This document shows positions 1 to 22,206 of a stretch of 24,000 nt of DNA, piece by piece. Each line of letters begins with the position of its first letter. The first letter of the stretch is position 1. This DNA is from an uncultured Gammaproteobacteria bacterium (GTDB lineage Bacteria > Pseudomonadota > Alphaproteobacteria > Azospirillales > Azospirillaceae). Where the stretch lies: assembly GCA_963575695.1 (NCBI GenBank), contig CAUYTZ010000315.1, forward strand, positions 3,180 to 27,179. The letters are read 5' to 3'. The notes under the pieces were generated by a model. That model saw only the letters and a program-made list of their open reading frames with translations, had not been told where the DNA came from and did not search any database. The position numbers and the translations under genes are program-made.

Positions 1-770
1 CACTTGCCTGCCGCACCTTCAACCACGCGCGCCGCAGTCACGCCCTTGGCCGTCATGGCGGTTCCGGCCACGCCCTTCCCCGCCAACCCCACCGCTTGCC
101 CGGTGGTTGGGTTCAAAAACAAAAACTTGCCGGCATTGTCGGCCGCAATGATCGGCCCCTGTTCGACGGTAAAAGTCTTACCGACCAGCGTCGGCACCAC
201 CCCAGCGGCGTTCTGGAGCTTAAGAACCACAATGTCCTTGGCGGCGACAGCGGCATCGCCAACCGGTTGCAGGAACAGCCACTTACCGGCCTCCCCAGCC
301 ACGGCTGATGTCTTAATTACCGTAAATGTCTTGCCGGCAAGGGCGGGAGTCTGTGCGGCAGCCGTGGCCCCCTCCAGTTGCAGCATTAGCATATTCGGTC
401 CGGCAACACCCGCCGACCCCAGACCTGCCGCCAACACCCCGGCCCCGCCCTTGGCCGCCAGAGCGGCTTTCGGACAGAACGTGACCCACTTGCCCATGCC
501 GCCAACGACAGTCGGCCCGTGCCCGATTGTAACCGATTTACCGACGAGGCCAGACATCTGCGCCATCTGCCGGGTGCCCTCAAGCTTTAGAACCACGGCC
601 CCCTGTCCAGCGGCGGTGGCACCTCCATCAGGAACCAGAAGCAAACTGGTTCCCATACCGTTACCGACAGTCGTTACTTGGCCCACGGTAAATGATTTTC
701 CGGTCAATCCAGACAAAAGGCTGGCCTGAGTGGTGCCTTCCACCTTCGCCATCACCATTTCTTGAAGCAT
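1..770 (-). CDS. mamD: MamD/Mms7-like magnetosome membrane protein, N-terminal ~256 aa (gene runs off the left window edge)
   Basis: Absent from the ORF track because it has no stop inside the window. My translation of the minus strand from ATG 770-768 (GGAGAG about 8 nt upstream) is open to position 1: MLQEMVMAKVEGTTQASLLSGLTGKSFTVGQ... It contains four ~45-60 aa modules of the pattern VVLKLEG...L(V/A)GK(T/S)FTV...GK(W/F)LFLxP, which is the repeated N-terminal architecture I recall for MamD. It lies downstream of an LG-repeat gene, as in mamGFDC. The + ORF 4..729 is its antisense shadow. Confidence 0.75.
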   Translation of the reverse strand, partial: MLQEMVMAKVEGTTQASLLSGLTGKSFTVGQVTTVGNGMGTSLLLVPDGGATAAGQGAVVLKLEGTRQMAQMSGLVGKSVTIGHGPTVVGGMGKWVTFCPKAALAAKGGAGVLAAGLGSAGVAGPNMLMLQLEGATAAAQTPALAGKTFTVIKTSAVAGEAGKWLFLQPVGDAAVAAKDIVVLKLQNAAGVVPTLVGKTFTVEQGPIIAADNAGKFLFLNPTTGQAVGLAGKGVAGTAMTAKGVTAARVVEGAAGK

Positions 771-1783: not shown

Positions 1784-2842
1784 ATGCAACCCGACCAGCA
1801 ACCGCTCACGACACTCGTTCGCCATCCTCTAGAACTCGTGCTGGGGGTTGATGTCAATGTCGGGTGGCGGTTAAGCGTTGCCACCAGCCCGGGGAAACTT
1901 TCCCCACAACACTCGCTTGAAGTTTTTGATGCAGACGATATCAATTCAGAATTTGAAAACGAAAACAGTGACCTGCTGGACCGAACCCGATACGCCAACG
2001 ACCTTGCGGAAACCTTTATTCGCGATGTTCCGGTCTGGTTAAAGGAGTTTGGCAAGGAATTCGAGGTTCCAGGTTTCGGGCGCTCTTTTCACTACTACAC
2101 GGAATGCCTGGATTGCGTTGACCTCCCAGAGTGCGAATTGTGTGGCAAAACTGGAAAAATAACGCATACCTGCCGATCATACCTTGTCGCCGTTTGTTCG
2201 GTTAATAAGGTTGTGCCGAGGCTGCCATCGCCGTTTCCTCCAGCAGAGGGAAACCCTCCCCCCGCCCCGCCGCAACCCACCCCGCCCCGCACGCTTAAAA
2301 AAGGGCACTGGGCGGTCGCGGCGGCCGCCCTTGCAACGATTATCATGGCCGTAAGTGTCGCCTTAAGAGTGATGCTGTACCCGGAATTAATCGTTCAGCC
2401 TGCGCCCTCCACTCAAACACAATGCTTCCCCGCCGAGAATGTTCCCGCGCCCGCGGTGGCCGCCCCCCCTCCACTTGAACCCACGCCCGCCCCGCCACCG
2501 CTTGCCGAATCGGACTCCACCCCCCCCGACCCCTTGCGCAAGCCCGTGGCTCCACCGGAGTGGACACCACCTCTAGCCGAGGGGCCGGAGAAAAATGCGC
2601 CGGGACTCCGTCTGCAACGCGCATTGAGTGAACTCGGTTTCCACCATGGCCCGCTTACCGGGGAACTCGATGGCCCGACTCGCCTAGCCCTAGCGGAATT
2701 CCTGGCCCTTGTGCCGCAGCCAATCAAAAGCAAATTCGGTAAACAGGTCGCCGCCATGGCCGAAGCGGCAGCCCGTCATGACTTCAACCTAGATGCGAAA
2801 CCCGGATCAGGCCCACCGGTCAGGCCTCCTCTGCCGGATTGA
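1784..2842 (+). CDS. hypothetical protein: Cys-rich Zn-ribbon-like segment, Pro-rich linkers, one TM helix, C-terminal peptidoglycan-binding-like domain
   Basis: 352-aa ORF. It has a CxxC-x5-CxxCGKTGK motif (TECLDCVDLPECELCGKTGKITHTC) and a TM helix (HWAVAAAALATIIMAVSVALRVML). The C-terminal LRLQRALSELGFHHGPLTGELDGPTRLALAEFLA fits the PG_binding_1 pattern (LQxxLxxLGyxxGxxDGxxGxxTxxAlxxFq). There is no SD before ATG 1784, so the start is uncertain. Confidence 0.6.
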   Translation: MQPDQQPLTTLVRHPLELVLGVDVNVGWRLSVATSPGKLSPQHSLEVFDADDINSEFENENSDLLDRTRYANDLAETFIRDVPVWLKEFGKEFEVPGFGRSFHYYTECLDCVDLPECELCGKTGKITHTCRSYLVAVCSVNKVVPRLPSPFPPAEGNPPPAPPQPTPPRTLKKGHWAVAAAALATIIMAVSVALRVMLYPELIVQPAPSTQTQCFPAENVPAPAVAAPPPLEPTPAPPPLAESDSTPPDPLRKPVAPPEWTPPLAEGPEKNAPGLRLQRALSELGFHHGPLTGELDGPTRLALAEFLALVPQPIKSKFGKQVAAMAEAAARHDFNLDAKPGSGPPVRPPLPD

Positions 2843-3155
2843 ACGAATGCAATTTCGATAAACCTTAATTAATCACCTCCCCCCTACGGATGGGTACACG
2901 CGGGAGGGCGGGACGGTTTTGATTTCAGAGATCCAAACCAGATGTTTCGCATCGGTTCACTTTCATGCGACAATATGGCAGAACTGGTGGTGAATTGGGT
3001 GGCGGTTAGACGCACGGTAGCTTATCAGCAACCTGTTGAATGCAATTGTGTTTGACTCAGAATTGAACACCTAGCCATGCAACCAAAAGCAGCGGAAGCG
3101 ACTCGACCGACGAATGCGAGACTGGTGAGAGTACGGCGGCCGATCGGAGATAGTG

Positions 3156-4379
3156 ATGGCGATCAGAGTCCTGTGTACCGTTGTCATATTGCTGGCTGAA
3201 TTTTATGCGTGGTTGATGACCGCGACCGGTTTGCAGTTGACGCAATATCGGCCCGCCTTCGGCGGTTGGATCGGTGACGCGCAGCCGTTCGTGTTGGCGG
3301 CACTGGTCCATGCCGCAATTTCCTTGTTTTACCTACGCTTGGCCTCACCAGTAACCATGGCGCGCCATGAAAAGGTCGCCTTGGCCCTGTCGGTGCCCTT
3401 GATCACGATTTTCGTGCTGTGGTCAATTTTTATGTCCACCTATTCAATCATGTTTGAGCGGCGCGCCGAAACCTCTTTCGTTGAAGCCGGAAACAAACTT
3501 CAATCGATCTTCGAGAATGTACGCAATCTTGATGATGAGATGTCAAAATACTATGTTGGTGCCGCCAATAACCTTCGTGAGCGCATGGAGTTTGAATCCA
3601 AGAAGCCAGAACCGGGTGTCCTCGCAGGATGCGGGAATCGCTGCCGAACAATTCGGCGAGCTTGGACCGACCTTCAAGATTTCCAGTATCTCAACACACC
3701 TGCTCTCCATAATCGGCAGCCATACCTGGATCTGGCAAAAGAACTTAGCGCTCTAGAAAACGAAAACATCACGGTTACTGACCGCCTTGAAGGATTTAGA
3801 GCCGCGAGTAAAGTTTTCATGGATCTCAACCGATTGTTGAGTGGTAACATTCGTGATGCGACCGCACTTGAAGATAATGCTGTGGTAAATGCCAGCAACC
3901 AATCAAATCAATACGCAGCACGCCTAAGAGAAATACAGAGACGCTTGGATGACTTGCGAAGCAATGATCGAAAGCTGACAGATTCCAAATATCGAGGCCT
4001 AACTGAACTGGTCAAAGACATTGTTACCGCGTCGGAGACCGGAAAAATAGCTCAGGTTCTGGATCTATCAACCGTACTGTTGATTGCCATGGCCCCGGAT
4101 ATTCTCTGCTTGGCAATGGCCGCACTGGCACGGAGCTTCACCTCCTCTTCAGAGCCGACCCCGATGCTGCCGTGGGGGCAAATGTTCTGGAAGCGACTCA
4201 TGCGCAACCGCCGCTACATGCCGAGCAACGTTGAAGTGGACAATCTTAAGAACCTGGTTGCGGAACAGCTTCGACAGCGGGTGAGCGGTGATCAACCCAG
4301 CCGCGACTCCAGTTCCGGCTTGCCCCATGGACCACGGCTGCAACCAAGACCAGCGGCACGGGAGCCGATCATCCGTTAA
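3156..4379 (+). CDS. hypothetical membrane protein (N-terminal multi-TM block, central coiled-coil-like region, C-terminal TM)
   Basis: ATG 3156 lies 5 nt after GGAGA (3146-3150); the track starts at GTG 3153. Hydrophobic N-terminus: VLCTVVILLAEFYAWLM, FVLAALVHAAISLFYL, ALALSVPLITIFVLWSIFM. The middle is charged and heptad-like, and there is a late TM (VLDLSTVLLIAMAPDILCLAMAALA). GC is visibly lower than in flanking genes. No family recognised. Confidence 0.65.
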   Translation: MAIRVLCTVVILLAEFYAWLMTATGLQLTQYRPAFGGWIGDAQPFVLAALVHAAISLFYLRLASPVTMARHEKVALALSVPLITIFVLWSIFMSTYSIMFERRAETSFVEAGNKLQSIFENVRNLDDEMSKYYVGAANNLRERMEFESKKPEPGVLAGCGNRCRTIRRAWTDLQDFQYLNTPALHNRQPYLDLAKELSALENENITVTDRLEGFRAASKVFMDLNRLLSGNIRDATALEDNAVVNASNQSNQYAARLREIQRRLDDLRSNDRKLTDSKYRGLTELVKDIVTASETGKIAQVLDLSTVLLIAMAPDILCLAMAALARSFTSSSEPTPMLPWGQMFWKRLMRNRRYMPSNVEVDNLKNLVAEQLRQRVSGDQPSRDSSSGLPHGPRLQPRPAAREPIIR

Positions 4380-5026: not shown

Positions 5027-5257
5027 AAGGTCACGCTCATTTTTGAGAAATCTCTTGTAAACGTAATATGTACGAGGCCATCTGGAATTTCAAGCGCATA
5101 ACTTTCGCACTCCGGGGGCCATGCCTAATCAGGGGGCTTTGCCCCCCAGCAACCTCTATCTCAACCATTCGGCTCGCCGGGATAAGAACTGCTGATGCGT
5201 AATGTTGCGAATTTCCTTATGGTCAAGAGTGATGGTTGCGCAGGGAGAGCACCCGCC

Positions 5258-7003
5258 ATGATCGGGAGCGACGACACAAGTGACAACGACGAACACATCG
5301 CCAACCCGCGACATCCGGGATCGAATGGTGTTCGTGGTGCTATGCGATCAAATCGGGTGACGGAGGAAGGCCAATGGGCAGAGCTTCTTGAAATCGCTGA
5401 CTGGAACCGACCGGCGACGCGAAAAACCGACGCCCCCCAACCATGCCCGCCCCAAAGGCCGGAGTCCGATCGTGGCCCAAGCGGGACCACAGCCGGGTTT
5501 GATGTGTTCGACACCAGCCTGTTCGATGACTGGGCCAGACTGGAAGGGGCGGGAACGCGGCCAATACCCGAATCAGCACTGGTGACCGCAGAAAGAATAG
5601 AAACAGAGGCTAACGCTGGGGACGAGAACCCGACTCCGAGTAATTCTTCGGCTGATCAACAGAGATCAGCGCTGATCGAAGTACGTACGATGCTGGAGCG
5701 TGAGTTGGAGGGGCTTCGTACCGAGGAACTCGAAGCCCGGCAGGAACTGGACAAGACCAATCAAAAGCTACACGCCACACGACTCGAAATTGAACATCTG
5801 GAACGCCAAGGCGGCGCACTGGTCGAATCGCAAGCAGTACAGGCGGAAACGCGAATAGTGCTGGAGCATGACCTTATAGCCCTGCAAGCCGACCTGTCGC
5901 ATCTGCGGATGGAACTCGATACCGCCAATCAAGAATTTGGGGCCAAGCGAGAGGCGATCGAGATCCTTGAGCGCGAACGGCGAACCTTGGCCCGCGACTC
6001 GGAGGCAGCGCAAACCAGGCTTACTCACGATCAAGACCAACTGGCCCGTCTAGCCCAGGATATCGCCGCCACAGAATCCCGGCAATCGGAACTGGCGCGC
6101 GATCTCGACACACTCGCCCAGGCTGGCCAGACCGCGCAACGCCAGAGCCAGGAACACTTGGCTGCCGCTGATCTCGAGCTTCAATCCAAGCGGGCTGAAA
6201 TCAATCAGTTGAGTCAGCATGGCTGCGCCCTGGCCGCCGACGTGGCCGCGATAAAATCAAGCCTTACCCGGGATCAGGAACAACTGGCCCGTCTAGCCCA
6301 GGATATCGCCACCAAACAATCCCGACAATCGGAACTGGCGCGCGATCTCGACAGACTCGCCCAGGCTGGCCAGACCGCGCAACGCCAAAGCCAGGAACAA
6401 CTGGCTGCCACTGGTCTCGAGCTTCAATCCAAGCGGGCTGAAATCAATCAGTTGAATCAGCATGGCTGCGCCCTGGCCGCCGACGTGGCCGCGATAAAAT
6501 CAAGCCTTACCCGGGATCAAAACGCCTCTAACCAATTGGCGAAGCAACGCACCACCTTGGAAAGCGAAGTGGAGGTTCTCCAAGCCGAGCAAAACCGGTA
6601 TCGGAAGGAAATCACCGCACTGAGCGAAGCGTCACGAATCAAAAGGACTGAGGTCGATGCTCTCGAACTCCAAACCCACGGACTGACTGACGAAGTTGCC
6701 GTAGCCAGAACGCAGCTTGGTCAGGCAACCGCTGCCGCACAAACCATGCAGCGCCACCGTGATGTGGCCGCCGAGGACATCCGAGGATTGAACCGACAAC
6801 GGGAAGCGATAAAATCAGAACTAACCCAACTACAAGAGGAAAAAAACAGACTTCAAGAAGACTTTCATGCCAGGCGCTTGGAACTTATAACGGTTTACAA
6901 CCATGATCGCAAACTGTTGGATAAACTGAAACGTGAGCTTGCCGCAACCCAACATCAACACGCCGGACTTGAGCCGGCTTCACCGTCACAAGCCGACACT
7001 TAA
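5258..7003 (+). CDS. large soluble coiled-coil protein with acidic N-terminal region and an 81-aa internal tandem duplication
   Basis: The ORF is open from 5195. ATG 5258 has GGGAGAG (5243-5249) 8 nt upstream, so it is the preferred start. From about residue 170 the sequence is continuous Q/E/R/A/L-rich heptad-like sequence. No TM segment and no family recognised. Confidence 0.7.
   Translation: MIGSDDTSDNDEHIANPRHPGSNGVRGAMRSNRVTEEGQWAELLEIADWNRPATRKTDAPQPCPPQRPESDRGPSGTTAGFDVFDTSLFDDWARLEGAGTRPIPESALVTAERIETEANAGDENPTPSNSSADQQRSALIEVRTMLERELEGLRTEELEARQELDKTNQKLHATRLEIEHLERQGGALVESQAVQAETRIVLEHDLIALQADLSHLRMELDTANQEFGAKREAIEILERERRTLARDSEAAQTRLTHDQDQLARLAQDIAATESRQSELARDLDTLAQAGQTAQRQSQEHLAAADLELQSKRAEINQLSQHGCALAADVAAIKSSLTRDQEQLARLAQDIATKQSRQSELARDLDRLAQAGQTAQRQSQEQLAATGLELQSKRAEINQLNQHGCALAADVAAIKSSLTRDQNASNQLAKQRTTLESEVEVLQAEQNRYRKEITALSEASRIKRTEVDALELQTHGLTDEVAVARTQLGQATAAAQTMQRHRDVAAEDIRGLNRQREAIKSELTQLQEEKNRLQEDFHARRLELITVYNHDRKLLDKLKRELAATQHQHAGLEPASPSQADT
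6020..6520 (+). repeat. 243-bp in-frame tandem duplication (2 copies plus the start of a third) inside the coiled-coil gene
   Basis: ctggcccgtc occurs at 6041-6050 and 6284-6293, giving a period of 243. cttac occurs at 6020, 6263 and 6506. The encoded 81-aa units (LT(H/R)DQ(D/E)QLARLAQDIA...HGCALAADVAAIKSS) differ at 10 positions. Confidence 0.9.
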
Positions 7004-7014
7004 GGAGGTTTGTT

Positions 7015-7620
7015 TTGTACGACACCTCATCGAATTCCGTGCTTGATGGCAACCAAGCCCCTGCCCTTTCCGCCATTAGTGGCGGCTCGATCCTCGACGC
7101 CCTTACCCGAAGCGAGCGGCTCTGGCCAATGTTGATCGGCCTATCATTGATCGCGGTGTCTTCGGTCACCTTGTTGAGCTATCAATCAATCAGCACGCGG
7201 TCTGAATTCCGCGACACCAGTATGGAGCAGGCAAGGCTCAAGTCGGAACTCGATGTCGCAACCAAGAAGGCAACCACGCTCCAGACCGAGTTGTTAGCGA
7301 CCAGAACAGAACTAACTGCGGCAAAACAAGAGCGCACGCAAAAAGAGATCGAGCTACAGCGTATTAACGGCGAAGTGGCCGCCTTGAGCGGTCGCCGGTC
7401 AACCCTCACCAATCAACTTACCGAACAGGCGCGGCTATCTAAAGATACTGAACACAAGATGGCTGTGGCGGTTCAGCAACGGAACCGATGTGAATTGGAT
7501 CTGGAAACCGCGCGATCAGAGATCGGTAGCATTCAGGGCCAACTCGCAACCGTCAGCGCCCAACTTAAGCAAGCACAAACTAAGATTCCACAGCCTCGCC
7601 CGGCCAAAGGTTCACGGTAG
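7015..7620 (+). CDS. membrane-anchored coiled-coil protein (201 aa)
   Basis: TTG start at 7015, 6 nt after a perfect AGGAGG (7003-7008) that overlaps the upstream stop codon. One TM helix (LWPMLIGLSLIAVSSVTLLSY) is followed by about 130 aa of heptad-like sequence. No family recognised. Confidence 0.7.
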   Translation: MYDTSSNSVLDGNQAPALSAISGGSILDALTRSERLWPMLIGLSLIAVSSVTLLSYQSISTRSEFRDTSMEQARLKSELDVATKKATTLQTELLATRTELTAAKQERTQKEIELQRINGEVAALSGRRSTLTNQLTEQARLSKDTEHKMAVAVQQRNRCELDLETARSEIGSIQGQLATVSAQLKQAQTKIPQPRPAKGSR

Positions 7621-7638
7621 TCCAGGGAGAATGTATAC

Positions 7639-9033
7639 ATGACTGGTAACTGGACGCTGATCCTAACCACCACTGCCGGATTGTCATTCGGGGGGGTGGT
7701 TGGCCTCATCGTGTTGATTGGCTACCAATTTCAGCGCGAAAGGATGCGGCTGGCTGATCGTATGGCCGAACAATTTTCTCATCAAGCAACCTTCGTGCTG
7801 CCGAACGATCACCACGCCGAAGTCGAGGCTGCGGAAAAACGGTTGGCACAGATCAACGAGGAAATTGTTTGGCTCGAACAGAGACGGGCGGAGGCGGCCT
7901 CCGCTGCGTCCGCAGCCTCAGCCGAGGCCACGGCATGGCAGGAACGGGCCAAACAAGCCCGCTCGGACGCCGCCACCCTTGACCGGCGCAAGGAATCGTC
8001 TGAACAAGAGCGTATCGCCTTGTCCACGATTACCGCAGAAATCGAATCGGCCGAACGAAACCGGGCCGAATTACACGCCAGCCTAAAGGAGATGCAGCAG
8101 CGCCGCGAAGCCTTGAGCGAAGATAATACGGGTTTGTCCCGCGATCTTAAGGCCTTTCGGGCCGAATTGGCCGCCCTGACTCACGAAATCCAAACCAAAC
8201 GCAACGAACTGGTGGAAATCAGCCGGCACACGGAAGCGCAACGCTTTGCTTCGACTTCCCTCGGGTCTGAAACCGAAAAACTGGCCCATCTCCAAAAGGC
8301 GAAGGCCGAAGCGGAACGGTACCTCCAAGAACAGCGGGCCAAGGTCACTGACCTGGAACGACAGGCTCAGGCACTGGCGGATGAAACGGAAAAGCTTCGA
8401 ACCGGAATCGAGCGGCACCGGCAAGCTTTGGCACGGTCGACTGAAGAAATCGCCACGACCGAACAGCAGCGCAACGAAATCGTTAGCTCCACCGATGAAT
8501 TGCGGCATAAACGCGACGCCCTGGCCGCAGATGTCACCCTGGCCAAACGCACCCAGGATGCACTTAAAGCTGAAGTTGTGCGGTTGGATAACGAGCGGAC
8601 CGCTCTTCAGCAGGATCTGGCCGTCAAACGTGACCAAATGGTCACCAGCCTGAACGAAACCCAGCAACGACAGGCAGCCCTGCACAAAGAGGTCACCGCA
8701 CTTGGCCGCGAACGAGAGATACTGTCCGAACGAGTCGCCGTCTTGCGTGGGGCCGCCGATGTGCTCGCCCCTCGTTCGACAATTCCAGCCCGACCAGCAT
8801 CCGTAACGGCAGCGCCACCGACACCGACTGCGGCACCGACCATAGCGACGGCCGCGAAACCGCGCCCGACGACACCCAAGTCCCCGCAGCCAAGCCCTAA
8901 AAAGGCGGCATCAACCGCCGGAGGATCTCTCGTTTTCAACGCGTTCAAGACGATCGATTCCGCCCTGACCACCTATCTATTTGGAAAACCCGCAGCGAAG
9001 AACCGAACGGCCCCCCCAAAAAAGAAGGCATAA
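7639..9033 (+). CDS. membrane-anchored long coiled-coil protein with Pro/Ala/Lys-rich C-terminal tail (464 aa)
   Basis: ATG 7639 follows GGGAGAA and lies 18 nt after the upstream stop. It has an N-terminal TM (NWTLILTTTAGLSFGGVVGLIVLIGY), about 330 aa of E/R/A/Q/L-rich coiled-coil-like sequence, then the tail PARPASVTAAPPTPTAAP...APPKKKA. No family recognised. Confidence 0.75.
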   Translation: MTGNWTLILTTTAGLSFGGVVGLIVLIGYQFQRERMRLADRMAEQFSHQATFVLPNDHHAEVEAAEKRLAQINEEIVWLEQRRAEAASAASAASAEATAWQERAKQARSDAATLDRRKESSEQERIALSTITAEIESAERNRAELHASLKEMQQRREALSEDNTGLSRDLKAFRAELAALTHEIQTKRNELVEISRHTEAQRFASTSLGSETEKLAHLQKAKAEAERYLQEQRAKVTDLERQAQALADETEKLRTGIERHRQALARSTEEIATTEQQRNEIVSSTDELRHKRDALAADVTLAKRTQDALKAEVVRLDNERTALQQDLAVKRDQMVTSLNETQQRQAALHKEVTALGREREILSERVAVLRGAADVLAPRSTIPARPASVTAAPPTPTAAPTIATAAKPRPTTPKSPQPSPKKAASTAGGSLVFNAFKTIDSALTTYLFGKPAAKNRTAPPKKKA

Positions 9034-9149
9034 TACCGTCGGGCCCCCTTGCCTTCTGCGACCAGAGCCTTTCTCCCTTGGAACCCACCAGGACGCTTCA
9101 CCTCTGGACCCAATTCGGAGCTTTTTTGGAGGTAAAATCCCAAGAAACA

Positions 9150-9746
9150 TTACGGCTGCCAGATATAACCACCCGGCGTCGACTCGATCGGAACTTTCAC
9201 AACAATATCGTGACACTTAATACAACGTCCCGCCGGCGGATGCGGAATTTCTGCATTGGGGCGGATTGGTGGCCCAAGCTTATGCAGGCGGGACAACTGT
9301 TCAAGAACCGCTCCAACTGGAGTTTTATACTGTGAACCTGGTCCGGGACCACCGACATAGAGATGACAATTGGTGCAGGGGCCAACATAAGGATGCGGCA
9401 TCCCGCCGCCAGCGACAATCGGCGGAATGCGTTTGATCGCCATCAGCTTGTAATCGGGACGCGCCTTGAACAGATCTGCCAGCGGGTCGAACAGCGAGGG
9501 GCCGACGGGTCGTGGCAGCGTGCCCAGGTAGTCGCCATCGACCATCCGGACCGAAACCTCTGAGTTAACACCAAAAATCGCGCGACCAAAGGCCAACAAG
9601 AACAGACCGGAAGCCAACACGATGGCAACGGCAAGCAGAGGCATCGCCTTACCTGGCCACCACTGATTGAATCGCTGCCAGGCCGAAATCAAATATGCCG
9701 GACGCTTCCACCATTTTTGACCTGTCAGCCAGCCCCACCAGTTCAT
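9150..9746 (-). CDS. mamT: MamT, double magnetochrome (2x CxxCH) magnetosome protein
   Basis: Two CxxCH heme motifs in magnetochrome context (PYVGPCTNCHLY and PPAGRCIKCHDI) follow a TM helix (MPLLAVAIVLASGLFLLAF). ATG 9746 forms an ATGA overlap with the mamS stop (9743-9745); the track start at 9773 is a GTG alternative. It is the last gene of the mamPAQRBST order. Confidence 0.85.
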   Translation of the reverse strand: MNWWGWLTGQKWWKRPAYLISAWQRFNQWWPGKAMPLLAVAIVLASGLFLLAFGRAIFGVNSEVSVRMVDGDYLGTLPRPVGPSLFDPLADLFKARPDYKLMAIKRIPPIVAGGGMPHPYVGPCTNCHLYVGGPGPGSQYKTPVGAVLEQLSRLHKLGPPIRPNAEIPHPPAGRCIKCHDIVVKVPIESTPGGYIWQP

Positions 9747-10351
9747 GGCCGCTGCCCAAGCCGATTTGACCACAGCGCGAAACCCTCATCCGAACGCAAT
9801 TGGCACGGCCGACCGTTAACTTTGATCGTACGGGCATAAAGCGGAACATCGGCACTGGCGGAATCAAAACGAAAAGCGGCTCCACTAACCTGATTATCCC
9901 GCATCACCGAACAGCCAAGGTACTGAAGGTACCAAGTGGGGGCGAGAGATACTATTTGACGGGCTCCAGTCGCATCACTCGCAATGGTAATGTGGACCTG
10001 TCCCCAGCCGGTCTCGGCACCCAGGGTCATGACCTGAACCACCCGCCCGGCAAATCGTTCCGGTAGTGGGCGCGAAAATGGTACCAGACCAGGAATCGCG
10101 GCCGGCTGCATTCGGCCGCCAACCGGCCTACCCGCCATCCCGCCCCCCAGAACGGATAGCTCCTGAGGCATCTGGGGCGCATTCAGCCCGGGGGTACCAA
10201 CACCAGCTCCGGCACCAACCGCTTCGGCGATCAATTTACCTGAGGCGTCAAAATCGGGCGCATCGTCATAAGAATCTGAAACCACCGCTGCAATTAGAAC
10301 AAAAATACCAAAGGCGGCACCAATGCCGATGACCGATCTTTCCAATTTCAA
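9743..10351 (-). CDS. mamS: MamS-like magnetosome protein
   Basis: It sits between mamB and mamT. It has an N-terminal TM (VIGIGAAFGIFVLIAAVV), and the C-terminal part VSLAPTWYLQYLGCSV...NGRPCQLRSDEGFALWSN matches what I recall of MamS (APGWFLQYMGC...LRNDEGFALWSN). The TTG start at 10351 is supported by a strong GGGGGGAGG 5 nt upstream. Confidence 0.8.
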   Translation of the reverse strand: MKLERSVIGIGAAFGIFVLIAAVVSDSYDDAPDFDASGKLIAEAVGAGAGVGTPGLNAPQMPQELSVLGGGMAGRPVGGRMQPAAIPGLVPFSRPLPERFAGRVVQVMTLGAETGWGQVHITIASDATGARQIVSLAPTWYLQYLGCSVMRDNQVSGAAFRFDSASADVPLYARTIKVNGRPCQLRSDEGFALWSNRLGQRP

Positions 10352-13224: not shown

Positions 13225-14244
13225 TCATGGTGCAATAACGTGACAGGCTTGGCATGGCCCCCGGTCTTCATGGGGCCGAACGCCCTGCGCGACAGTATCG
13301 CGGAAGAGTGGCGGTGGAGGCAAGGTTATCAGATCTGGATCGGGTCTGAGTTCAAATCCAGAGCCGATCGAATGACACTGGGTGCAGGGGCCGCGATCGG
13401 GATGGGGACGCGGGTCACCCGCCTTGATCATCGGTGCCCCCTCAACCTGAGCGAACCCTAGTTCGCGGCTGTCGCTTAACGCCAGAGTCAGGCGCATCAT
13501 CGTCGAACGAGCGCCGGTCTGGTCTCTGGCCCCGACCTTGCGCAGCACCGCCATCGTCGCCTGTTTGTGGTTGGCCACAGTGCGAGTCGCTTCCTGGAAA
13601 GCCTCCAGTGTCATCACCGGTTGGCCTTGAATCGCCACGATCACATCACCACCAAGCAGCCCAGAGCGCCCCGCCGCCAAAGAAACCTCGCCGACCAGAA
13701 TCCCTTCCAGTTGCTGAGGAAAGCGCAATTTTCGCCTCAGCTCGACGGTCAGCAGGCGGACATCCATGCCCTGCCAATGCGCTTCGTACAACTGCACAGT
13801 TTCGGGAATGAAGTTTGGGGCTTTCGGTGCGACGGCCTCAACCGCCCCTTCAACCATGCCCTGCCCCTGCACAGGCCCCGCTGAAGGTACGGCGACCGGA
13901 ACAGCTTCAGCGACGGGTGGGGGCTGGACGATCACATGGGGCGGGAAGCCATTCACCGCGTTGACCGGCAACATCAGCAGAGTCCCCGGAACAGGCGGTA
14001 CAGCGCCGGAAATCCCATCGGCCGTGGACGACTTTCCTCCCCCCCAAACCGCCGACATCACCCCGGATGGGTTCACCGCCGATACATGTTTGAACAGGCC
14101 GAACCCGTTTGTCCACACCCCAATGACCACTGCGGTCACGACGGTGAGGATGGTCACACTGATCTGAGTTTCCTGCTTCACGCCGACTGAGCTTTCCGCG
14201 TTATGGCTTTGTCTTAACAGGGTTAGAAAATATAGACTCGCCAC
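13225..14244 (-). CDS. mamP: MamP, PDZ + double magnetochrome iron oxidase
   Basis: It has a TM (ISVTILTVVTAVVIGVW), a PDZ-like segment (GILVGEVSLAAGRSGLLGGDVIVAIQGQPV) and two magnetochrome CxxCH motifs (RGPCTQCHSI, RGPCQACHVI). There is no ATG before the TM. The start is either GTG 14244 or GTG 14181, and neither has a good SD, so the 5' end is uncertain. Confidence 0.85.
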   Translation of the reverse strand: MASLYFLTLLRQSHNAESSVGVKQETQISVTILTVVTAVVIGVWTNGFGLFKHVSAVNPSGVMSAVWGGGKSSTADGISGAVPPVPGTLLMLPVNAVNGFPPHVIVQPPPVAEAVPVAVPSAGPVQGQGMVEGAVEAVAPKAPNFIPETVQLYEAHWQGMDVRLLTVELRRKLRFPQQLEGILVGEVSLAAGRSGLLGGDVIVAIQGQPVMTLEAFQEATRTVANHKQATMAVLRKVGARDQTGARSTMMRLTLALSDSRELGFAQVEGAPMIKAGDPRPHPDRGPCTQCHSIGSGFELRPDPDLITLPPPPLFRDTVAQGVRPHEDRGPCQACHVIAP

Positions 14245-14334: not shown

Positions 14335-14450
14335 AATCCCTCCCCCTTGCCCCACGCCAATAAGCCCGCGCGCCACAATCATCTGTGTCTGGATATCACT
14401 TCGTGGTAGTGATCTGGCGGCGACGGGATCGGACTGACAAGAGCGTGCGG

Positions 14451-15320
14451 ATGTTCAACAAACACTGTCGTGACTGTCGCGACCACGCAGCCTGGACCGA
14501 TATGTTCACGGCGTTGGCGCTGGCCGTGTTCAAGAACCTGCTTGGTACTCTGACCGGCAGCATGGCCTTGCAGGCGCATGCACTGCACTCTTTGGCCGAT
14601 TTTTTGACCAAAGGCATCAATCTTGCCAGCATTAAGCTTTCCGGTCGCGCCCCGAGTTCTCAGTTTCCCTATGGCTATGGCAAGATTCAATTTCTATCGG
14701 CAAACTTCATCGGGGTTTCCCTGACCGTCGGGTCTCTCGCTTTCTTGTGGGATAACCTACGCCACATCAACAGCGGTCACATCCAGCCACCGCTGCCGAT
14801 CGCCTTGCTCGGTGCCCTGGTCTCTGCGGTCACGGCGGAGCTGATGCACCGCTACCTAACCTGTGTCGCGATCAGAACCAACAGCCCGGCCATCCAGGCT
14901 GCCGCAGCCGACAACCGCGGCGACGCACTGTCTTCACTGGCGGTGATGGCCGGTGTTCTGTTGGCGTTGCTTGGCTGGAGCACCGCCGACCATCTTGCGG
15001 CGATTCTGGTTAGTCTGCTGGTGTTGCGTGTCGGCGTACGAGTCGCCTGGGATAGCATCCATGGCTTGATGGACGGCACCGTCCCCCCCGCAGTGCTCGA
15101 TGAAGTTCGGCGAATCGTCGGACAGCACGATGGGGTTACAAATATCGAAGGCTTGCGGGGTCGACGAATGGGTGAAACCTGGGAAATAGATCTTCGCGTC
15201 AGGATTCCCGGCACGTTGAGCGCGACTGAATGTCACGACCTTGCCGAAGCACTTAGACAGCAAGTGATTCAGAAACTCCGCCACGCCGCTACCGTTCATA
15301 TTGCCTTCGTTCCAGGGTAA
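14451..15320 (+). CDS. MamM-like / MamB-family cation diffusion facilitator, divergent from mamP
   Basis: ATG 14451 gives MFNKHCRDCRDH..., the N-terminal CxxC typical of MamB/MamM; the track start at GTG 14385 adds 22 unlikely residues. CDF motifs: HALHSLADF (TM2 HxxxD), FPYGYGKIQF, CVAIRTNSPAIQAAAADNRGD (TM5 DxxxD) and a CTD (LRGRRMGETWEIDLRV). CVAIxTNSP and HSLxD resemble my recollection of MamM more than MamB. Confidence 0.85.
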   Translation: MFNKHCRDCRDHAAWTDMFTALALAVFKNLLGTLTGSMALQAHALHSLADFLTKGINLASIKLSGRAPSSQFPYGYGKIQFLSANFIGVSLTVGSLAFLWDNLRHINSGHIQPPLPIALLGALVSAVTAELMHRYLTCVAIRTNSPAIQAAAADNRGDALSSLAVMAGVLLALLGWSTADHLAAILVSLLVLRVGVRVAWDSIHGLMDGTVPPAVLDEVRRIVGQHDGVTNIEGLRGRRMGETWEIDLRVRIPGTLSATECHDLAEALRQQVIQKLRHAATVHIAFVPG

Positions 15321-15609: not shown

Positions 15610-15709
15610 TGCGACTCCTCACCCGTTCCGCTTACAGTTTGCCGGTTGAAGCGAGTCGCGGGTTGGGTGATCCCGTGGGGCTGGCCTTGGTCGCCATTTG
15701 GAAAAGAAC

Positions 15710-16162
15710 ATGCGAACAACGATGACTCTAGATGTGAATGCGGCACGGCTCATCCACATTGACTGGCTAATGCAACTGGAAAGCTCCCTTGATCTGGGGC
15801 CGAACCCGGCCGGGACTCCGGTCATGGGTACGCCACCCCAGTCTGACACGGAGTGTGCTCTGGGGGTGTGGCTCCACGGCCCCGGCCGGCTCCGCTACGG
15901 CCAGCTTGATGAGATCAAGCGCCTAACTATCGAGCATAGAACATTTCATCGCACGATTGATAAGGCGGCGGCGCGGGTCCATCAAGGAGAGCGCGAAAAA
16001 GCACTGGCTCTGTTCCAAGATGCACGAAGAATTAGTAAGGACATTGTCTACCTGTTGACTTTTATCGAACTGGAGATTCTGGAGCGGGAACGGAAGCGCC
16101 ACCTTTCCCGGAATCCTTTTAATGCCATTCGATCATTTTTTTCAGGCATTGCGGCGCGATGA
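15710..16162 (+). CDS. stand-alone CZB (chemoreceptor zinc-binding) domain protein
   Basis: CZB signature: ARLIHIDWLMQL ... ECALGVWL ... IEHRTFHRTI (His, Cys, HxxxH ligands). The ORF is open from TTG 15698, with ATGs at 15710 and 15722, so the start is uncertain within about 25 nt. Confidence 0.75.
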   Translation: MRTTMTLDVNAARLIHIDWLMQLESSLDLGPNPAGTPVMGTPPQSDTECALGVWLHGPGRLRYGQLDEIKRLTIEHRTFHRTIDKAAARVHQGEREKALALFQDARRISKDIVYLLTFIELEILERERKRHLSRNPFNAIRSFFSGIAAR

Positions 16163-16214
16163 TCATTGGCAATGCCACTCATTACGCCCCACGAGAACGC
16201 AGGAGAAAGCGGCC

Positions 16215-16571
16215 ATGATGCTCGATATAACCCATGCTCGTTTGGTTCACTTGAAGTGGGCGTCGCAACTAAGCCGACTGTTCCGTAATTTTGGCAAAGA
16301 TGTAGCGCTTCAGACCCATGAGGAATGTGCTGTTGGTGTCTGGATAAGCCGGGTTGGCTTGCACAAATACGCCCACATTGAAGAAATAGGACAACTTAAC
16401 GATTGTCATGCTAAATTCCACGAAGCGGCCAGCCGTACCATCTCTTGCTTGCAACAAAAGCAATTCCACCAGGCACAGGAGGCTTATGGCATCGTCAACA
16501 CACTCAGTCGGGATATCGTCTATTTGCTGACGGTGATTGAATACCATCTGGAGATGACGAAGCCACATTGA
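16215..16571 (+). CDS. stand-alone CZB domain protein (second, tandem paralog)
   Basis: ATG 16215 lies 8 nt after AGGAGAA (16201-16207); the longer track ORF from 16122 overlaps the upstream gene. Motifs: ARLVHLKWASQL ... ECAVGVWI ... NDCHAKFHEA. Confidence 0.8.
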   Translation: MMLDITHARLVHLKWASQLSRLFRNFGKDVALQTHEECAVGVWISRVGLHKYAHIEEIGQLNDCHAKFHEAASRTISCLQQKQFHQAQEAYGIVNTLSRDIVYLLTVIEYHLEMTKPH

Positions 16572-16577
16572 GTAAAC

Positions 16578-17354
16578 TTAGACTTCCGTTGCGATTTGTT
16601 CTAGCGCCTCCAGATCACAGGTAAAACTGTTCGGTCCAAGTTCTTGAACCGTGCCCATTCTTCTGAATTGGGCCACCACCCGGCTTGCGGTTTCGGTCGT
16701 TACCCCCAGCAAAGCACCGATGTCTTCCCGCCCAAACAACCGGCACCGGCCATGCGCACTTTGGGCGGTATTTGAAGAGGCGGCATCGCGTGAAGCCAGC
16801 ATCAAGAACAGCCGCGCGACCCGCTGGCGGGCACTGCCGGTCGCCAATTCGCGTGTGCAATCATGAGCCTGGAGTACCGCTTCGTGCCACTTCTTCATCA
16901 ACTGCCGATGGAGTTTGCCGGAAAGTCTGGCCACGATTTCGGTCGGTAACCGGCAGACCCAGGTCGGTTGCAGGGCCACGGCCGCATGTTCATAGACGGC
17001 GGCAACCGTTACCTCCAGACCGGCAACCTGGCCTGGGCCGAGCAGGCTGACGATGCGCGAAGTTCCGTCTGGAAGATATTGTTCAAGCTTAAGCAAGCCC
17101 TCACGAACAGTATAAATCGCGGCACCGGTGTCGCCAGCCCGGTACAGACAGGCCCCCGGAGACAGCCGGAGATCTTGAATCGAGGGATTGGAACCAAGTT
17201 CGGCGCGGGTCAGGTCGGCGAACAGGGCAAGCTCACGAACGCTGCAAGCGTCGCACGCGGTCGAATCCGGACAGGAAGATTGGCTTTGTTTTGTCCGCAT
17301 GGTCGGAATTGTTGTCGCAACGAATGTGGGTCCAGGGACTCTAGGCTCCGGCAT
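16578..17354 (-). CDS. Crp/Fnr-family transcription regulator with FNR-type cysteine set
   Basis: It has a cNMP-binding-like beta-roll (LYRAGDTGAAIYTVREGLLKL) and a C-terminal HTH with the E--SR recognition motif (GVTTETASRVVAQFRRMG; compare E. coli FNR GLTVETISRLLGRFQKSG). N-terminal cysteines: SCPDSTACDACS. A central Cys in WVCRLP aligns with FNR MVCEIP (C122). ATG 17354 overlaps the upstream stop as TAATG; an alternative ATG is at 17300. Confidence 0.85.
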   Translation of the reverse strand: MPEPRVPGPTFVATTIPTMRTKQSQSSCPDSTACDACSVRELALFADLTRAELGSNPSIQDLRLSPGACLYRAGDTGAAIYTVREGLLKLEQYLPDGTSRIVSLLGPGQVAGLEVTVAAVYEHAAVALQPTWVCRLPTEIVARLSGKLHRQLMKKWHEAVLQAHDCTRELATGSARQRVARLFLMLASRDAASSNTAQSAHGRCRLFGREDIGALLGVTTETASRVVAQFRRMGTVQELGPNSFTCDLEALEQIATEV

Positions 17355-18406
17355 TACTTCCGATCACCGAAGCGACGCCAGACCGAACGGATCGCAAGCG
17401 CCAACAACAACGCGGCCGAGGCCATGGCCACCCATCCGGGTGCCGCTTCTTCGGCGGTAGACCAGGAATGAGCCAAATCAAAAGAAAAATCATGCACAAC
17501 AAGATCGGTGATTATCCCGGCCACAAGCGCGCAGCCAATCAGACCACTCAAATAGAGCACCGTGGCCATTGACCCAAGTTCACGCCGAACCACCGCAATC
17601 GTGGCCAAGTTGGTCGCGGGCCCGGCCAGCAGGAACACCATCACCGCCCCGGGCGAAACCCCGGCCAGCAACAAGGCTCCGGCCAACGGCGTTGAAGCGG
17701 TGGCGCAGATATACATCGGCACGCCGATGGCGACCATCGCCAGCATCGCTGGCAGGCCACCGCCCCAGCCGGCCAATGCTTGCGGCGGGACCAGCGTCGC
17801 GGTCAGCGCCGCCGCCAGCAAGCCAAGCGCCAACCACAAGATCAGATCATCGAACATGTCGGTAAAGGCGTAGGACAACCCGGCCAGAGTCCGGCCCAGC
17901 AAGCTCTGTCGCGCCGGAGCCACCATTTTGCCGCTCCCACAGCAGTCGGTGGCGCAGCCACCGGCGGAAGCGGCTGGGGAAAGAGCTGGCACGGCAACAT
18001 CCTCACGCGGCAGAACCAGCATCAGCAATCCGGTGGCCACGGCACTGGTTACGGCGGCAACCGGCCGGGCGATGGCGAAAAACGGTCCCAGAATGCCGTA
18101 AGACAGCGCGATGGAATCAAGGCCAGTTTCCGGGGTGGCGATCAGGAACGAAACCACCGCCTCACGCGACGCGCCGGCTCGGCGCAGCCCTACCGCCGCC
18201 GGCAGCACACCACACGAGCACAGCGGCAAAGGTGCGCCAATCAGCGCCGCCAGCACCGCTGGCCGAATTCCACGCCCGCCGAGCCAGCGCCCCAAAGTGG
18301 CGGCCGGCAGCCAAGCGTGAACCAGTCCCGCCGCCGCCAGTCCCAGCACCAGCCAGGGAGCGGCATCAAGGAACAAGTCCAGACCGTGAACGGCAAATTC
18401 CTGCAT
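17354..18406 (-). CDS. PF03773/UPF0718-type permease (ArsP / SO_0444-like putative metal transporter)
   Basis: 350 aa, polytopic. It has the family-typical GAPLPLCSCGVLP motif, a Cys-rich central loop (GGCATDCCGSG) and a two-halves architecture. ATG 18406 follows AAAGG. Confidence 0.8.
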   Translation of the reverse strand: MQEFAVHGLDLFLDAAPWLVLGLAAAGLVHAWLPAATLGRWLGGRGIRPAVLAALIGAPLPLCSCGVLPAAVGLRRAGASREAVVSFLIATPETGLDSIALSYGILGPFFAIARPVAAVTSAVATGLLMLVLPREDVAVPALSPAASAGGCATDCCGSGKMVAPARQSLLGRTLAGLSYAFTDMFDDLILWLALGLLAAALTATLVPPQALAGWGGGLPAMLAMVAIGVPMYICATASTPLAGALLLAGVSPGAVMVFLLAGPATNLATIAVVRRELGSMATVLYLSGLIGCALVAGIITDLVVHDFSFDLAHSWSTAEEAAPGWVAMASAALLLALAIRSVWRRFGDRK

Positions 18407-21675: not shown

Positions 21676-22206
21676 TTACACAGGATTATGCGGGGCCAGC
21701 GCCTCTGACAGTTCTTCGCTCTCGTCGGTGAACTCAACCTCTTCCTGCCCCTTACGATAGCGCCAGTAACCATACGCTGCCGCCGCACCAGCGGCAACAA
21801 CCAAAACCGGCCCCCACGCCCCCAGGCCCAAACCCAATCCGAGACTCAGGCCCTTGCCAGTCCAAATCGTCCCGCCGGTGGTCAAAGCTTGAGCACTACC
21901 CGCAACTTGCACCCCGGTCGCGGTGGTTGCTGGCAAGGCCGCCTGCGTGACCATGCCGGTTCCCTTGCCGGCCGCAACCGCAGCCCCCTTGGCGCCCGCC
22001 CCTGCCCCAGCGACGACCTTCTCACCAGCCATGATCTTAAGGGTAGCCGCCTGCCGGGCGGCTTCCTTTTCGATGCCGGCCCCCGCCACTTTAGCCCCTG
22101 TGGCAACCTTACCCCCGGCAACCCCTTTTACCGCAGCCCCCTTGGCCGTTGCAGTTTGACGGGCAATTTCATTTTCCACTTCGCCGACAGGCGTAGCAGC
22201 AACCAT
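21676..22206 (-). CDS. mms6: Mms6-like Leu-Gly-repeat magnetosome protein (176 aa)
   Basis: The C-terminus GGTIWTGKGLSLGLGLGLGAWGPVLVVAAGAAAAYGYWRYRKGQEEVEFTDESEELSEALA has the Mms6 signature (GTIWxGKGLGLGLGLGAWGP + acidic tail ending (D/E)ALA). ATG 22206 lies 5 nt after AAGGGGG. The track start at GTG 22272 is less likely. The gene is followed by mmsF. Confidence 0.85.
   Translation of the reverse strand: MVAATPVGEVENEIARQTATAKGAAVKGVAGGKVATGAKVAGAGIEKEAARQAATLKIMAGEKVVAGAGAGAKGAAVAAGKGTGMVTQAALPATTATGVQVAGSAQALTTGGTIWTGKGLSLGLGLGLGAWGPVLVVAAGAAAAYGYWRYRKGQEEVEFTDESEELSEALAPHNPV

Follow-up and report, generated by a model that had tools for sequence, protein, structure and literature searches.

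The 24-kb stretch of DNA analyzed here (24,000 nt, hereafter the window) is a magnetosome gene cluster (MGC) from the Lake Pavin water-column metagenome-assembled genome CCP5-WCLP8, assigned to the Azospirillaceae (locus tags WCLP8_38400xx), and it contains beside mamT an operon of three genes encoding long coiled-coil proteins, which we designate CC1, CC2, and CC3. In the sequence collections searched, this operon is a clade-restricted, MGC-exclusive accessory unit of the CCP-1 / CCP5-WCLP8 group, comprising uncultured freshwater Rhodospirillales related to Azospirillaceae. We propose, with about even confidence, that CC1, CC2, and CC3 serve magnetosome chain organization as a membrane-anchored coiled-coil scaffold or tether, analogous but, as judged from the libraries searched, not homologous to McaB, MamY, CcfM, MamJ, and Mad20/25/26. 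Such a scaffolding or positioning role, suggested earlier in the initial annotation of the window, draws partial support from genomic context and protein architecture. The organism itself (GCA_963575695.1) forms both magnetosomes and intracellular amorphous calcium carbonate (PMC11773610).

Distribution of the CC operon among magnetosome gene clusters

An exhaustive phmmer scan with CC3 covered 1.84 billion representative public proteins and returned five matches in all, every one belonging to the CC3 family. Word-indexed searches with CC1 and CC2 in 5.8 billion protein clusters found only the proteins themselves. In addition, 69 MGC loci were fetched through MamT and searched by tblastn and with profile hidden Markov models (HMMs) built from the first homologs, and further loci were taken from the contigs of the phmmer matches and from metagenome contigs scanned with the CC1 alignment, the latter yielding the same contexts only. 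Synteny and profile searches together identified relatives in at least eight other lineages (Table 1), and all CC relatives with genomic context lie inside MGCs. The concern that homologs might be widespread in non-magnetotactic bacteria, or missing from related clusters, is not borne out: the five CC3 matches have MGCs as their only known contexts, and relatives are present in ELA004, ELA536, ELA412, CCP-1, GROS21, the JGI/ENA lineage, and the SESB/SERZ contigs.

The position beside mamT is retained in six lineages despite protein identities of about 30%. When the window is compared with ELA004, the Mam proteins are 62-81% identical, whereas CC1-CC3 are only 27-32% identical. In the remaining 66 MGC loci, which include Magnetospirillum, Magnetococcales, gammaproteobacterial, Nitrospirota, Nitrospinota, and SAR324 clusters, tblastn and profile HMMs detected no CC1-CC3 homolog within 10 kb of mamT, and long coiled-coil open reading frames (ORFs) near mamT were otherwise rare (12 in the 69 loci). 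The cultured Rhodovastum G2-11 possesses the MGC closest to that of CCP-1 (PMC9938234); no CC3 relative from G2-11 appeared in the phmmer scan, in whose library the presence of its proteome is unconfirmed.

Zorya type I-like genes were observed in or next to the MGC of relatives (L080, 51-4526, minus strand; L074, 3144-7372, minus strand). ZorA-, ZorB-, and ZorC-like genes are located divergently upstream of the CC1 homolog in ELA004 and GROS21, with PADLOC scores for the L080 and L074 neighbors of 182-233 bits (ZorA), 198-204 bits (ZorB), and 136-311 bits (ZorC); the ELA004 ZorC is truncated and followed by an AAA-ATPase-like gene. The CCP-1 locus has only an EH-signature gene, about 9 kb from the operon, and an OmpA-domain gene (L070, 20035-21308, minus strand), and the gene set upstream of CC1 in the SERZ01001758 contig (L083, 5061-9316, minus strand) was linked to Zor solely through gene lengths and gene order. 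The Zorya-like sets of the relatives showed no ZorD, and no Zorya-like genes were seen in the window.

Structure of the operon

All three ORFs listed in the initial annotation are present on the plus strand, at 5195-7003 (602 aa), 7015-7620, and 7639-9033. For CC1, we prefer the start at 5258 over that at 5195 because it is the deposited one (WCLP8_3840011), it has its own Shine-Dalgarno site (GGGAGAG, 8 nt upstream of the ATG), and it matches the N-termini of the homologs. The short gaps and strong Shine-Dalgarno sites described initially proved exact: CC1 and CC2 are separated by 11 nt (7004-7014) and CC2 and CC3 by 18 nt (7621-7638), with AGGAGG (7003-7008) placed 6 nt 5' of the TTG codon of CC2 and GGGAGAA (7625-7631) placed 7 nt 5' of the ATG codon of CC3. 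The operon also converges, as described, on the oppositely oriented mamT.

The 116-nt spacer between CC3 and mamT contains a terminator-like hairpin, which is a consensus match only, such sites being no more frequent in the region than expected from shuffled sequence. No sigma-70-like promoter was found upstream of CC1. A sigma-70-like match, likewise by consensus only, is situated in the 3' end of CC1 (Table 1) and could let CC2 and CC3 be expressed independently of CC1, as would suit the lineages that have no CC1.

The GC content at third codon positions of CC1-CC3 (0.57-0.62) is the same as that of the mam genes, and the operon therefore bears no sign of recent foreign insertion. Homologs sharing this architecture and gene order are present in at least eight other lineages, and by this conservation CC1-CC3 are judged to be real genes and not chance ORFs.

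Architecture of CC1, CC2, and CC3

The predominance of heptad-like sequence in all three proteins was upheld. Heptad-compatible, proline-free windows cover 65% of CC1, 63% of CC2, and 66% of CC3 in a heptad-register test, compared with at most 51%, 42%, and 45%, respectively, in 30 shuffles of each protein; the cover in other proteins of the window is 0-33%, and long helices are present in the AlphaFold2 (AF2) models of CC1 and CC3. Profile comparisons using hhalign gave probabilities of 98.6% for CC3 against CC1 and 95.5% for CC2 against CC3; coiled-coil profiles inflate such scores, so the three proteins are possibly paralogs or share only their coiled-coil composition, and we do not rely on either.

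CC3 consists, in order, of an N-terminal transmembrane (TM) helix, two long helices, a Pro/Ala-rich linker, a conserved C-terminal helix, and a polybasic end. The AF2 model, built from a 5-sequence alignment, has a mean predicted local distance difference test (pLDDT) score of 76, with the TM and juxtamembrane helix at aa 5-48 and the long helices at aa 58-206 (149 residues) and aa 212-375 (164 residues), both with a pLDDT of about 90. Seven full-length CC3 homologs of 435-617 aa were available for comparison. The TM and juxtamembrane part is the best conserved, with 55% mean pairwise identity and no indels over the seven sequences; residues W5, G14, L15, S16, G19, and L23 are invariant in all seven. 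Lys and Arg residues are absent before the TM helix and number two to four after it in 7/7 homologs, and the positive-inside rule predicts a topology with the N-terminus outside and the C-terminus inside. The rods are less conserved (37-38% identity in the seven sequences) and contain many indels, and the linker, also with many indels, has a mean identity of 26%. The C-terminal helix, in turn, is free of indels, with 45% mean identity, invariant L443, L447, and F448, and a hydrophobic moment of 0.39-0.65, corresponding to moderate amphipathicity. The basic, Pro/Ala-rich end recorded in the initial annotation is thus present and resolves into the linker and the polybasic segment (Table 1); the last 90 aa carry a net charge of +8 to +14 in 7/7 homologs. 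Because the TM segment and the C-terminal helix are indel-free, the rods and linker indel-rich, and the total length variable over 435-617 aa, CC3 can be described as a putative anchor-spacer-binding-end protein.

In the longest CC3 homolog, P0007 (L071 2304-4157, 617 aa), the amphipathic-helix motif occurs twice, as LDVLRGTLRAVDKQV... and LDLLRGTFRAVDSALSTYLF, with a Pro-rich spacer between the two, and the CC3 proteins of ELA004, ELA536, and GROS21 contain an extra short motif, KSPLAF[LF]. The CC3 tail appears modular, given this duplication and the additional motif in three lineages.

CC2 comprises a coiled coil of about 125 aa, with heptad segments at aa 62-141 and aa 146-191, and a basic, Pro-rich C-terminal end. 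The expectation that the second and third proteins begin with a TM helix holds for CC3, where the helix is N-terminal, but not for CC2, where it is found at residues 36-54, behind a variable N-terminal segment. Two Lys/Arg residues flank it on each side and the balance is mixed over the seven homologs, leaving the predicted orientation ambiguous. These seven CC2 homologs, of 192-224 aa, are always encoded directly upstream of CC3.

CC1 lacks a TM helix and has a net charge of -28 and a pI of 5.1. Its single-sequence AF2 model places helices at aa 130-190, 196-318, 329-472, and 477-569, preceded by the acidic N-terminal region that had been noted initially and is confirmed here (Table 1); pLDDT is below 50 over aa 1-108. 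The conserved elements of CC1 are two N-terminal Trp motifs and the last approximately 90 residues of the rod. Invariant residues are W40, L43, L44, F89, W92, E96, A98, and G99, and the block FDDWARLEGAG has 55% mean pairwise identity as opposed to 20-30% in its flanks. The first 150 aa are acidic in 4/4 homologs (net charge -6 to -13, pI 4.3-4.8), and the ELA004 homolog contains Glu-Pro repeats. The predicted charge complementarity between the acidic CC1 N-terminus and the basic CC3 tail is therefore a conserved feature. An in-frame tandem duplication (Table 1), whose copies share 72/81 aa, is specific to the lineage of the window, the homologs being gapped there. CC1 homologs in the same position range from 296 aa in CCP-1 to 578 aa in ELA004.

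Family searches and the Smc annotation

Searches of CC1-CC3 against Pfam, NCBIfam, PADLOC, and PHROGs returned only sub-threshold coiled-coil noise (e.g., SMC arm, ATG16, Fez1, LmuB). No Mam or Mms match at E <0.01 was obtained in NCBIfam or Pfam, libraries in which the presence of MamJ, MamY, and MamK models is unconfirmed; the same library recognized the neighboring MamA, B, D, P, Q, R, S, T, V, and Mms6-like proteins. The earlier failure to recognize a Mam, Mms, Mad, or Mca family in the operon agrees with these results and with the CC3 phmmer scan. Non-homology to MamJ, MamY, McaB, CcfM, and Mad proteins refers to the phmmer scan for CC3 and to the weaker word-indexed searches for CC1 and CC2, the presence of the reference proteins in the libraries being assumed and the families being set apart without direct sequence alignment; the Magnetospirillum locus L022 begins at mamK. 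Against PDB sequences, the three family profiles matched only designed coiled coils, the dynein stalk, reovirus sigma-1, and keratin, at E 8e-5 or weaker, and a Foldseek search of PDB with the CC3 model found nothing.

An identity as phage or plasmid coiled-coil proteins (tail-fiber or KfrA-like) was rejected, as tblastn with CC3 gave no match in 50,697 phage and 72,556 plasmid records, and PHROGs gave one weak CC1 match without any passing stretch. A Zorya identity was likewise rejected: in PADLOC, the matches of CC1-CC3 do not exceed 22 bits and are confined to the coiled-coil parts of LmuB, JetC, and PbeC.

CC2 is identical to CAK0765492.1, which is annotated 'Smc', and both CC2 and the CCP-1 homolog of CC3 bear the deposited name 'Chromosome partition protein Smc'. 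That these are SMC-type chromosome partition proteins is extremely improbable. They resemble SMC proteins in their long heptad coiled coil, with the CC3 model displaying two long helices and a short break between them, and NCBIfam SMC models do match them, weakly, at E 1e-12 to 1e-5. However, the scores of 24-45 bits (24.5-44.7 bits for TIGR02168) are more than ten-fold below the family cutoff of 567 and cover arm positions ~670-980 only. SMC proteins, at about 1,100-1,200 aa, are defined by ABC-ATPase head halves at the N- and C-termini and by a central hinge; Pfam finds neither the SMC_N head nor the hinge, and the proteins have 201-581 aa as opposed to about 1,150. SMC is, moreover, a soluble protein associated with DNA, whereas CC2 and CC3, two of the three proteins, are each predicted to be membrane-anchored by a hydrophobic TM helix conserved in all homologs. 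Judged from these matches, the public Smc label is a coiled-coil artifact.

Other features of the window

The nearest relatives of the MamT of the window, at 66-72% identity, are without exception encoded in Rhodospirillales or Azospirillaceae genomes, and the Gammaproteobacteria label on the deposited proteins is therefore probably wrong. The deposited organism name is 'uncultured Gammaproteobacteria bacterium', while the paper and the genome table give an Azospirillaceae bacterium.

Genes mamJ, mamK, and mamY were not found in the window with Pfam or NCBIfam. The initial annotation was correct in stating their absence, but the absence carries no argumentative weight because this 27-kb contig does not include the mamHIEKLMO part of the cluster. 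CCP-1, a carrier of the same operon, has MamK (PMC9938234).

The remaining features are listed in Table 1. The ORF at 4-729 on the plus strand is an antisense shadow of the partial mamD. The second gene of the cation diffusion facilitator (CDF) family scores 371 bits, above the MamB cutoff, 391 bits with MamV (cutoff 500), and only 189 bits with MamM; its divergent arrangement with mamP is kept in ELA004 (L080 14026-14901). The CZB ORFs, the Crp/Fnr-type regulator, and the ArsP-type permease may serve the cluster as regulatory or transport accessories. The YhgA-like putative transposase is a probable marker of the island boundary, and a Magnetococcales MGC locus contains a copy with 34% identity (L064 10683-11723). 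For the 352-aa orphan, no family was found, no homolog occurred in the fetched loci, and a collection of 15 billion proteins contained only the protein itself. Homologs of the 408-aa protein (45-69% identity) are encoded in the CCP-1 and GROS21 clusters, making it another clade-specific MGC gene; they adjoin a ParA/CbiA-like ATPase of 269-272 aa (L070 3666-4484; L074 14663-15472). A ParA-like ATPase in an MGC could be a pointer to organelle positioning.

Table 1. Positions of the CC operon, its protein segments, and other features in the 24-kb window, followed by the homologous operons of other lineages.
Feature	Position (nt)	Strand	Description
CC1	5258-7003	+	581 aa (longest ORF from 5195 = 602 aa)
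CC1 N-terminal region, aa 1-129	5258-5644	+	Predicted disordered, acidic, Pro-rich; net -12, pI 4.4
CC1 motif WAELL..W	5375-5389	+	N-terminal region
CC1 motif F[DNE][DE]WA[RK]lEGAG	5522-5554	+	N-terminal region
CC1 in-frame tandem duplication	6029-6520	+	243 bp (81 codons, 2.0 copies); TRF, 94% matches
Sigma-70-like promoter match TTGAAC-16-TAAAAT	6788-6815	+	In CC1 3' end, upstream of CC2; consensus match only
CC2	7015-7620	+	201 aa, TTG start
CC2 TM helix, aa 36-54	7120-7176	+	Kyte-Doolittle 19-residue mean 1.99; after variable N-terminal segment
CC3	7639-9033	+	464 aa
CC3 N-terminal TM helix, ~aa 5-29	7651-7725	+	Motif W..AGLS..G...L
CC3 Pro/Ala-rich linker, aa 376-429	8764-8925	+	Predicted disordered, pLDDT 38-46
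CC3 C-terminal amphipathic helix, aa 430-448, and polybasic end, aa 449-464	8926-9030	+	Net +6 (aa 449-464); motif ..[RK].[IV]D.AL..yLFG; AF2
Terminator-like hairpin and T-run	9102-9128	+	69 nt past CC3 stop, in CC3-mamT spacer
mamT	9150-9773	-	Pfam MCR; NCBIfam MamT 195.7 bits, slightly below 200-bit cutoff
mamS, mamB, mamR, mamQ, mamA, mamP	After mamT, to mamP 13225-14244	-	Pfam/NCBIfam
Second CDF gene	14385-15320	+	Divergent from mamP
Two overlapping-frame CZB (chemoreceptor zinc-binding) ORFs	15698-16162, 16122-16571	+	Between mamP/CDF and feoAB
Crp/Fnr-type regulator and ArsP-type permease	16578-17354, 17354-18406	-	Between mamP/CDF and feoAB
feoA/feoB	Right of mamP	-	
Partial mamD	1-770	-	Runs off left window end; NCBIfam MamD 218 bits
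Mms6/MamD/MamG-like genes	1070-1546, 21676-22272	-	GLGLGLG..WGP motif; opposite cluster ends
352-aa orphan	1784-2842	+	N-terminal Cys-rich C..C...C..C, TM ~aa 174, Pro-rich (15.6% Pro) region
408-aa protein	3153-4379	+	~4 TM helices and coiled-coil segment; no Pfam/NCBIfam family
YhgA-like putative transposase	22924-24000	+	Transposase_31 and DUF4351; eight AEGK repeats; off right end
Operon of ELA004 (L005/L080/L082)			CC1/CC2/CC3 578/215/555 aa; converges on mamT
Operon of ELA536 (L002)			CC1 contig ends, CC2/CC3 192/455 aa; converges on mamT
Operon of ELA412 (L001)			CC1 absent, CC2/CC3 224/437 aa; converges on mamT, then glnB
Operon of ENA/JGI/Logan lineage (L071-73)			CC1 absent, CC2/CC3 196/617 aa; converges on mamT and mamS
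Operon of SESB01006942 (L081)			CC1/CC2/CC3 547/192/457 aa; contig ends just past CC3; mamT inferred from antisense match to the mamT region of the window
Operon of CCP-1 single-cell genome (L070)			CC1/CC2/CC3 296/195/435 aa; converges on CDF gene; mms6-like gene just upstream
Operon of GROS21 metagenomes (L074-79)			CC1/CC2/CC3 546/192/448 aa; then response regulator, mms6-like gene, mmsF
Operon of SERZ01001758 (L083)			CC1 537 aa, then contig ends; CC1 only

Discussion

Chain arrangement varies from lineage to lineage, and the proteins responsible for it have evolved separately: magnetospirilla use MamJ, MamY, CcfM, and McaAB, and deep-branching groups use coiled-coil Mad proteins. An architectural counterpart of CC3 is McaB of Magnetospirillum magneticum AMB-1, a single-pass magnetosome protein with an outward N-terminus that controls magnetosome spacing (PMC9512821); McaB has one N-proximal TM helix and a cytoplasmic C-terminus, and it is lineage-restricted and encoded in or near magnetosome clusters (PMC9512821). 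The predicted topology of CC3 is the same, the positive-inside rule being followed in 7/7 homologs. The phmmer scan, in which the presence of McaB is assumed, nevertheless returned the CC3 family only. No VWA domain, such as the periplasmic VWA/MIDAS domain of the adjacent partner McaA, was found in any ORF of the window or among the called genes of related loci, and the CC system differs from McaAB in having three proteins, including the soluble, acidic CC1.

MamY and CcfM of Magnetospirillum gryphiswaldense are membrane-bound or coiled-coil chain positioners, CcfM bridging MamY and MamK, as outlined in PMC9512821. No sequence similarity between these proteins and CC1-CC3 was detected in the libraries searched, and mamY belongs to the mamXY operon, whereas the CC genes lie beside mamT. 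The acidic (pI 4.3-4.8), Pro-rich, predicted disordered N-terminus of CC1 is reminiscent of MamJ, an acidic, repetitive adaptor that links magnetosomes to MamK; CC1 differs in that about 440 of its 581 residues form a predicted coiled-coil rod and in that its gene is adjacent to mamT, whereas mamJ is located between mamE and mamK. MamJ is not known to have a coiled-coil rod. In the G2-11 cluster, a separate MamJ-like gene occupies the canonical position (PMC9938234).

Among coiled-coil proteins, Mad20, Mad25, and Mad26 organize chains in Desulfovibrio magneticus RS-1, and it has been argued that chain organization evolved separately in each lineage (PMC12748827). Like the CC operon, Mad20, Mad23, Mad25, and Mad26 are a multi-gene, MGC-encoded, lineage-specific set; the Mad proteins interact mutually and assemble magnetosome sub-chains (PMC12748827). 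The coiled-coil proteins of RS-1 have no TM helix, whereas two of the three CC proteins are predicted to be membrane-anchored, and RS-1 belongs to a different phylum; all coiled-coil magnetosome proteins of AMB-1 carry TM domains (PMC12748827). No homology to Mad proteins emerged, since CC3 had no phmmer match outside its family and the Nitrospirota, Nitrospinota, SAR324, and Deltaproteobacteria MGC loci had no profile match.

In the proposed scaffold, a very short acidic N-terminal tail of CC3 would be located outside (in the periplasm or magnetosome lumen), and a rod of about 320 residues would extend in the cytoplasm, its length being about 45 nm in an extended state and about 22 nm with the two helices folded back on each other. 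The flexible Pro-rich linker would present the amphipathic helix and polybasic end to a second membrane surface or to an acidic partner such as the CC1 N-terminus. CC2 would act as a shorter membrane-anchored partner or co-anchor, and CC1 as a soluble rod whose conserved C-terminal 90 residues might pair with the anchored rods, while its acidic N-terminus with two Trp motifs might recruit another factor (e.g., MamK or MamA), in a manner similar to that of the acidic adaptor MamJ. Together, the three proteins would link, space, or position magnetosomes, and rod length may be tuned by indels and duplications, exemplified by the 81-codon duplication in CC1. A more specific version of this scheme, which we regard as possible and put forward tentatively, is an independently evolved alphaproteobacterial system in which CC3 is a two-ended tether whose rod length sets how far magnetosomes lie from one another or the chain lies from another membrane (cell membrane or carbonate inclusion), CC2 is a co-anchor, and CC1 is an adaptor to the actin-like filament.

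The architecture and neighborhood of CC3 also bear on a magnetosome-specific function other than chain organization, namely membrane remodeling or invagination, protein sorting, or control of crystal growth, which we consider somewhat unlikely. The MGC-exclusive distribution fits it equally well, the neighbors are biomineralization genes (mamT, mamS, CDF, mms6-like, mmsF) and not mamK or mamJ, and the TM helix as the most conserved part of CC3 hints at a specific intramembrane partner; the carriers also differ in crystal habit, prismatic in CCP-1 and octahedral in CCP5 (PMC11773610). However, CC3 has no lumenal domain that could touch the crystal, its predicted N-tail comprising about five residues, and long rods that vary in length and carry indels and duplications are usual for spacers or scaffolds, not for enzymes or fixed-geometry curvature modules.

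Several observations weigh against a scaffold for chain organization. Coiled-coil, TM, and amphipathic-helix calls were made with simple in-house heuristics, and the AF2 models were computed with shallow or no alignments. CC1 is missing in ELA412 and L071-73, and the CC2 rod might not be cytoplasmic, its orientation being ambiguous. Three equally close relatives, VK3_bin-0780, Umea3_bin-0647, and CCP2-SC5, lack the operon within 10 kb of mamT; on this ground, and given the lack of a G2-11 match in the phmmer scan, we regard it as accessory and not core. As to chain phenotype, CCP-1 has a single central chain and CCP2 a honeycomb bundle. Furthermore, more than 20 genes lacking a known magnetosome role are scattered through the CCP-1 cluster (PMC9938234), and Zor-like genes adjoin the operon in ELA004 and GROS21. 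This dispensability in close relatives, the many unrelated genes in CCP-1 clusters (PMC9938234), and the Zor-like neighbors would suit an island passenger without any magnetosome role, be it a coiled-coil system of general cytoskeletal or envelope function or an accessory to the Zorya-like ZorA/ZorB/ZorC set. We judge such a passenger unlikely: the operon stays with the mam genes where no Zor genes were seen (the window, ELA412, L071-73, and L081), it keeps its place next to mamT in six lineages at about 30% identity, the CC3 scan found no homolog outside an MGC, and PADLOC returned only coiled-coil noise for CC1-CC3.

The phenotype of the carriers suggests a further possibility, that the proteins tether or position the lipid-bounded calcium carbonate inclusions or hold the magnetosome chain relative to them. 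The inclusions take up 44-68% of the cytoplasm of morphotype 1 cells and have a lipid bilayer around them (PMC11773610), the only two carriers whose phenotype is known, CCP-1 and CCP5-WCLP8, each produce them (PMC11773610), and a protein with two predicted membrane-binding ends suits organelle-organelle tethering. Yet CCP2-SC5 forms inclusions without having the operon beside mamT, the gammaproteobacterial MGC loci L028, L029, and L043 lack a homolog, and the operon is linked to mam genes and not to a carbonate-related gene, so that we find this role quite improbable.

In published cluster maps, genes such as these are drawn in gray, as function-unknown genes, and the members of the three families were previously nameless or labeled 'Smc'. 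They now appear as a new protein-family trio, conserved, MGC-exclusive, and architecturally coherent over at least eight uncultured lineages, which we interpret from their sequences as a lineage-specific, MGC-encoded structural accessory, and a misleading public Smc annotation is corrected. The three genes constitute a cloneable candidate set for a further chain-organizing system, in hosts whose cytoplasm is crowded by carbonate inclusions. If the proposed role is true, the CC proteins would represent a third solution to chain organization, distinct from both MamJ/MamY/CcfM/McaAB and Mad20-26.

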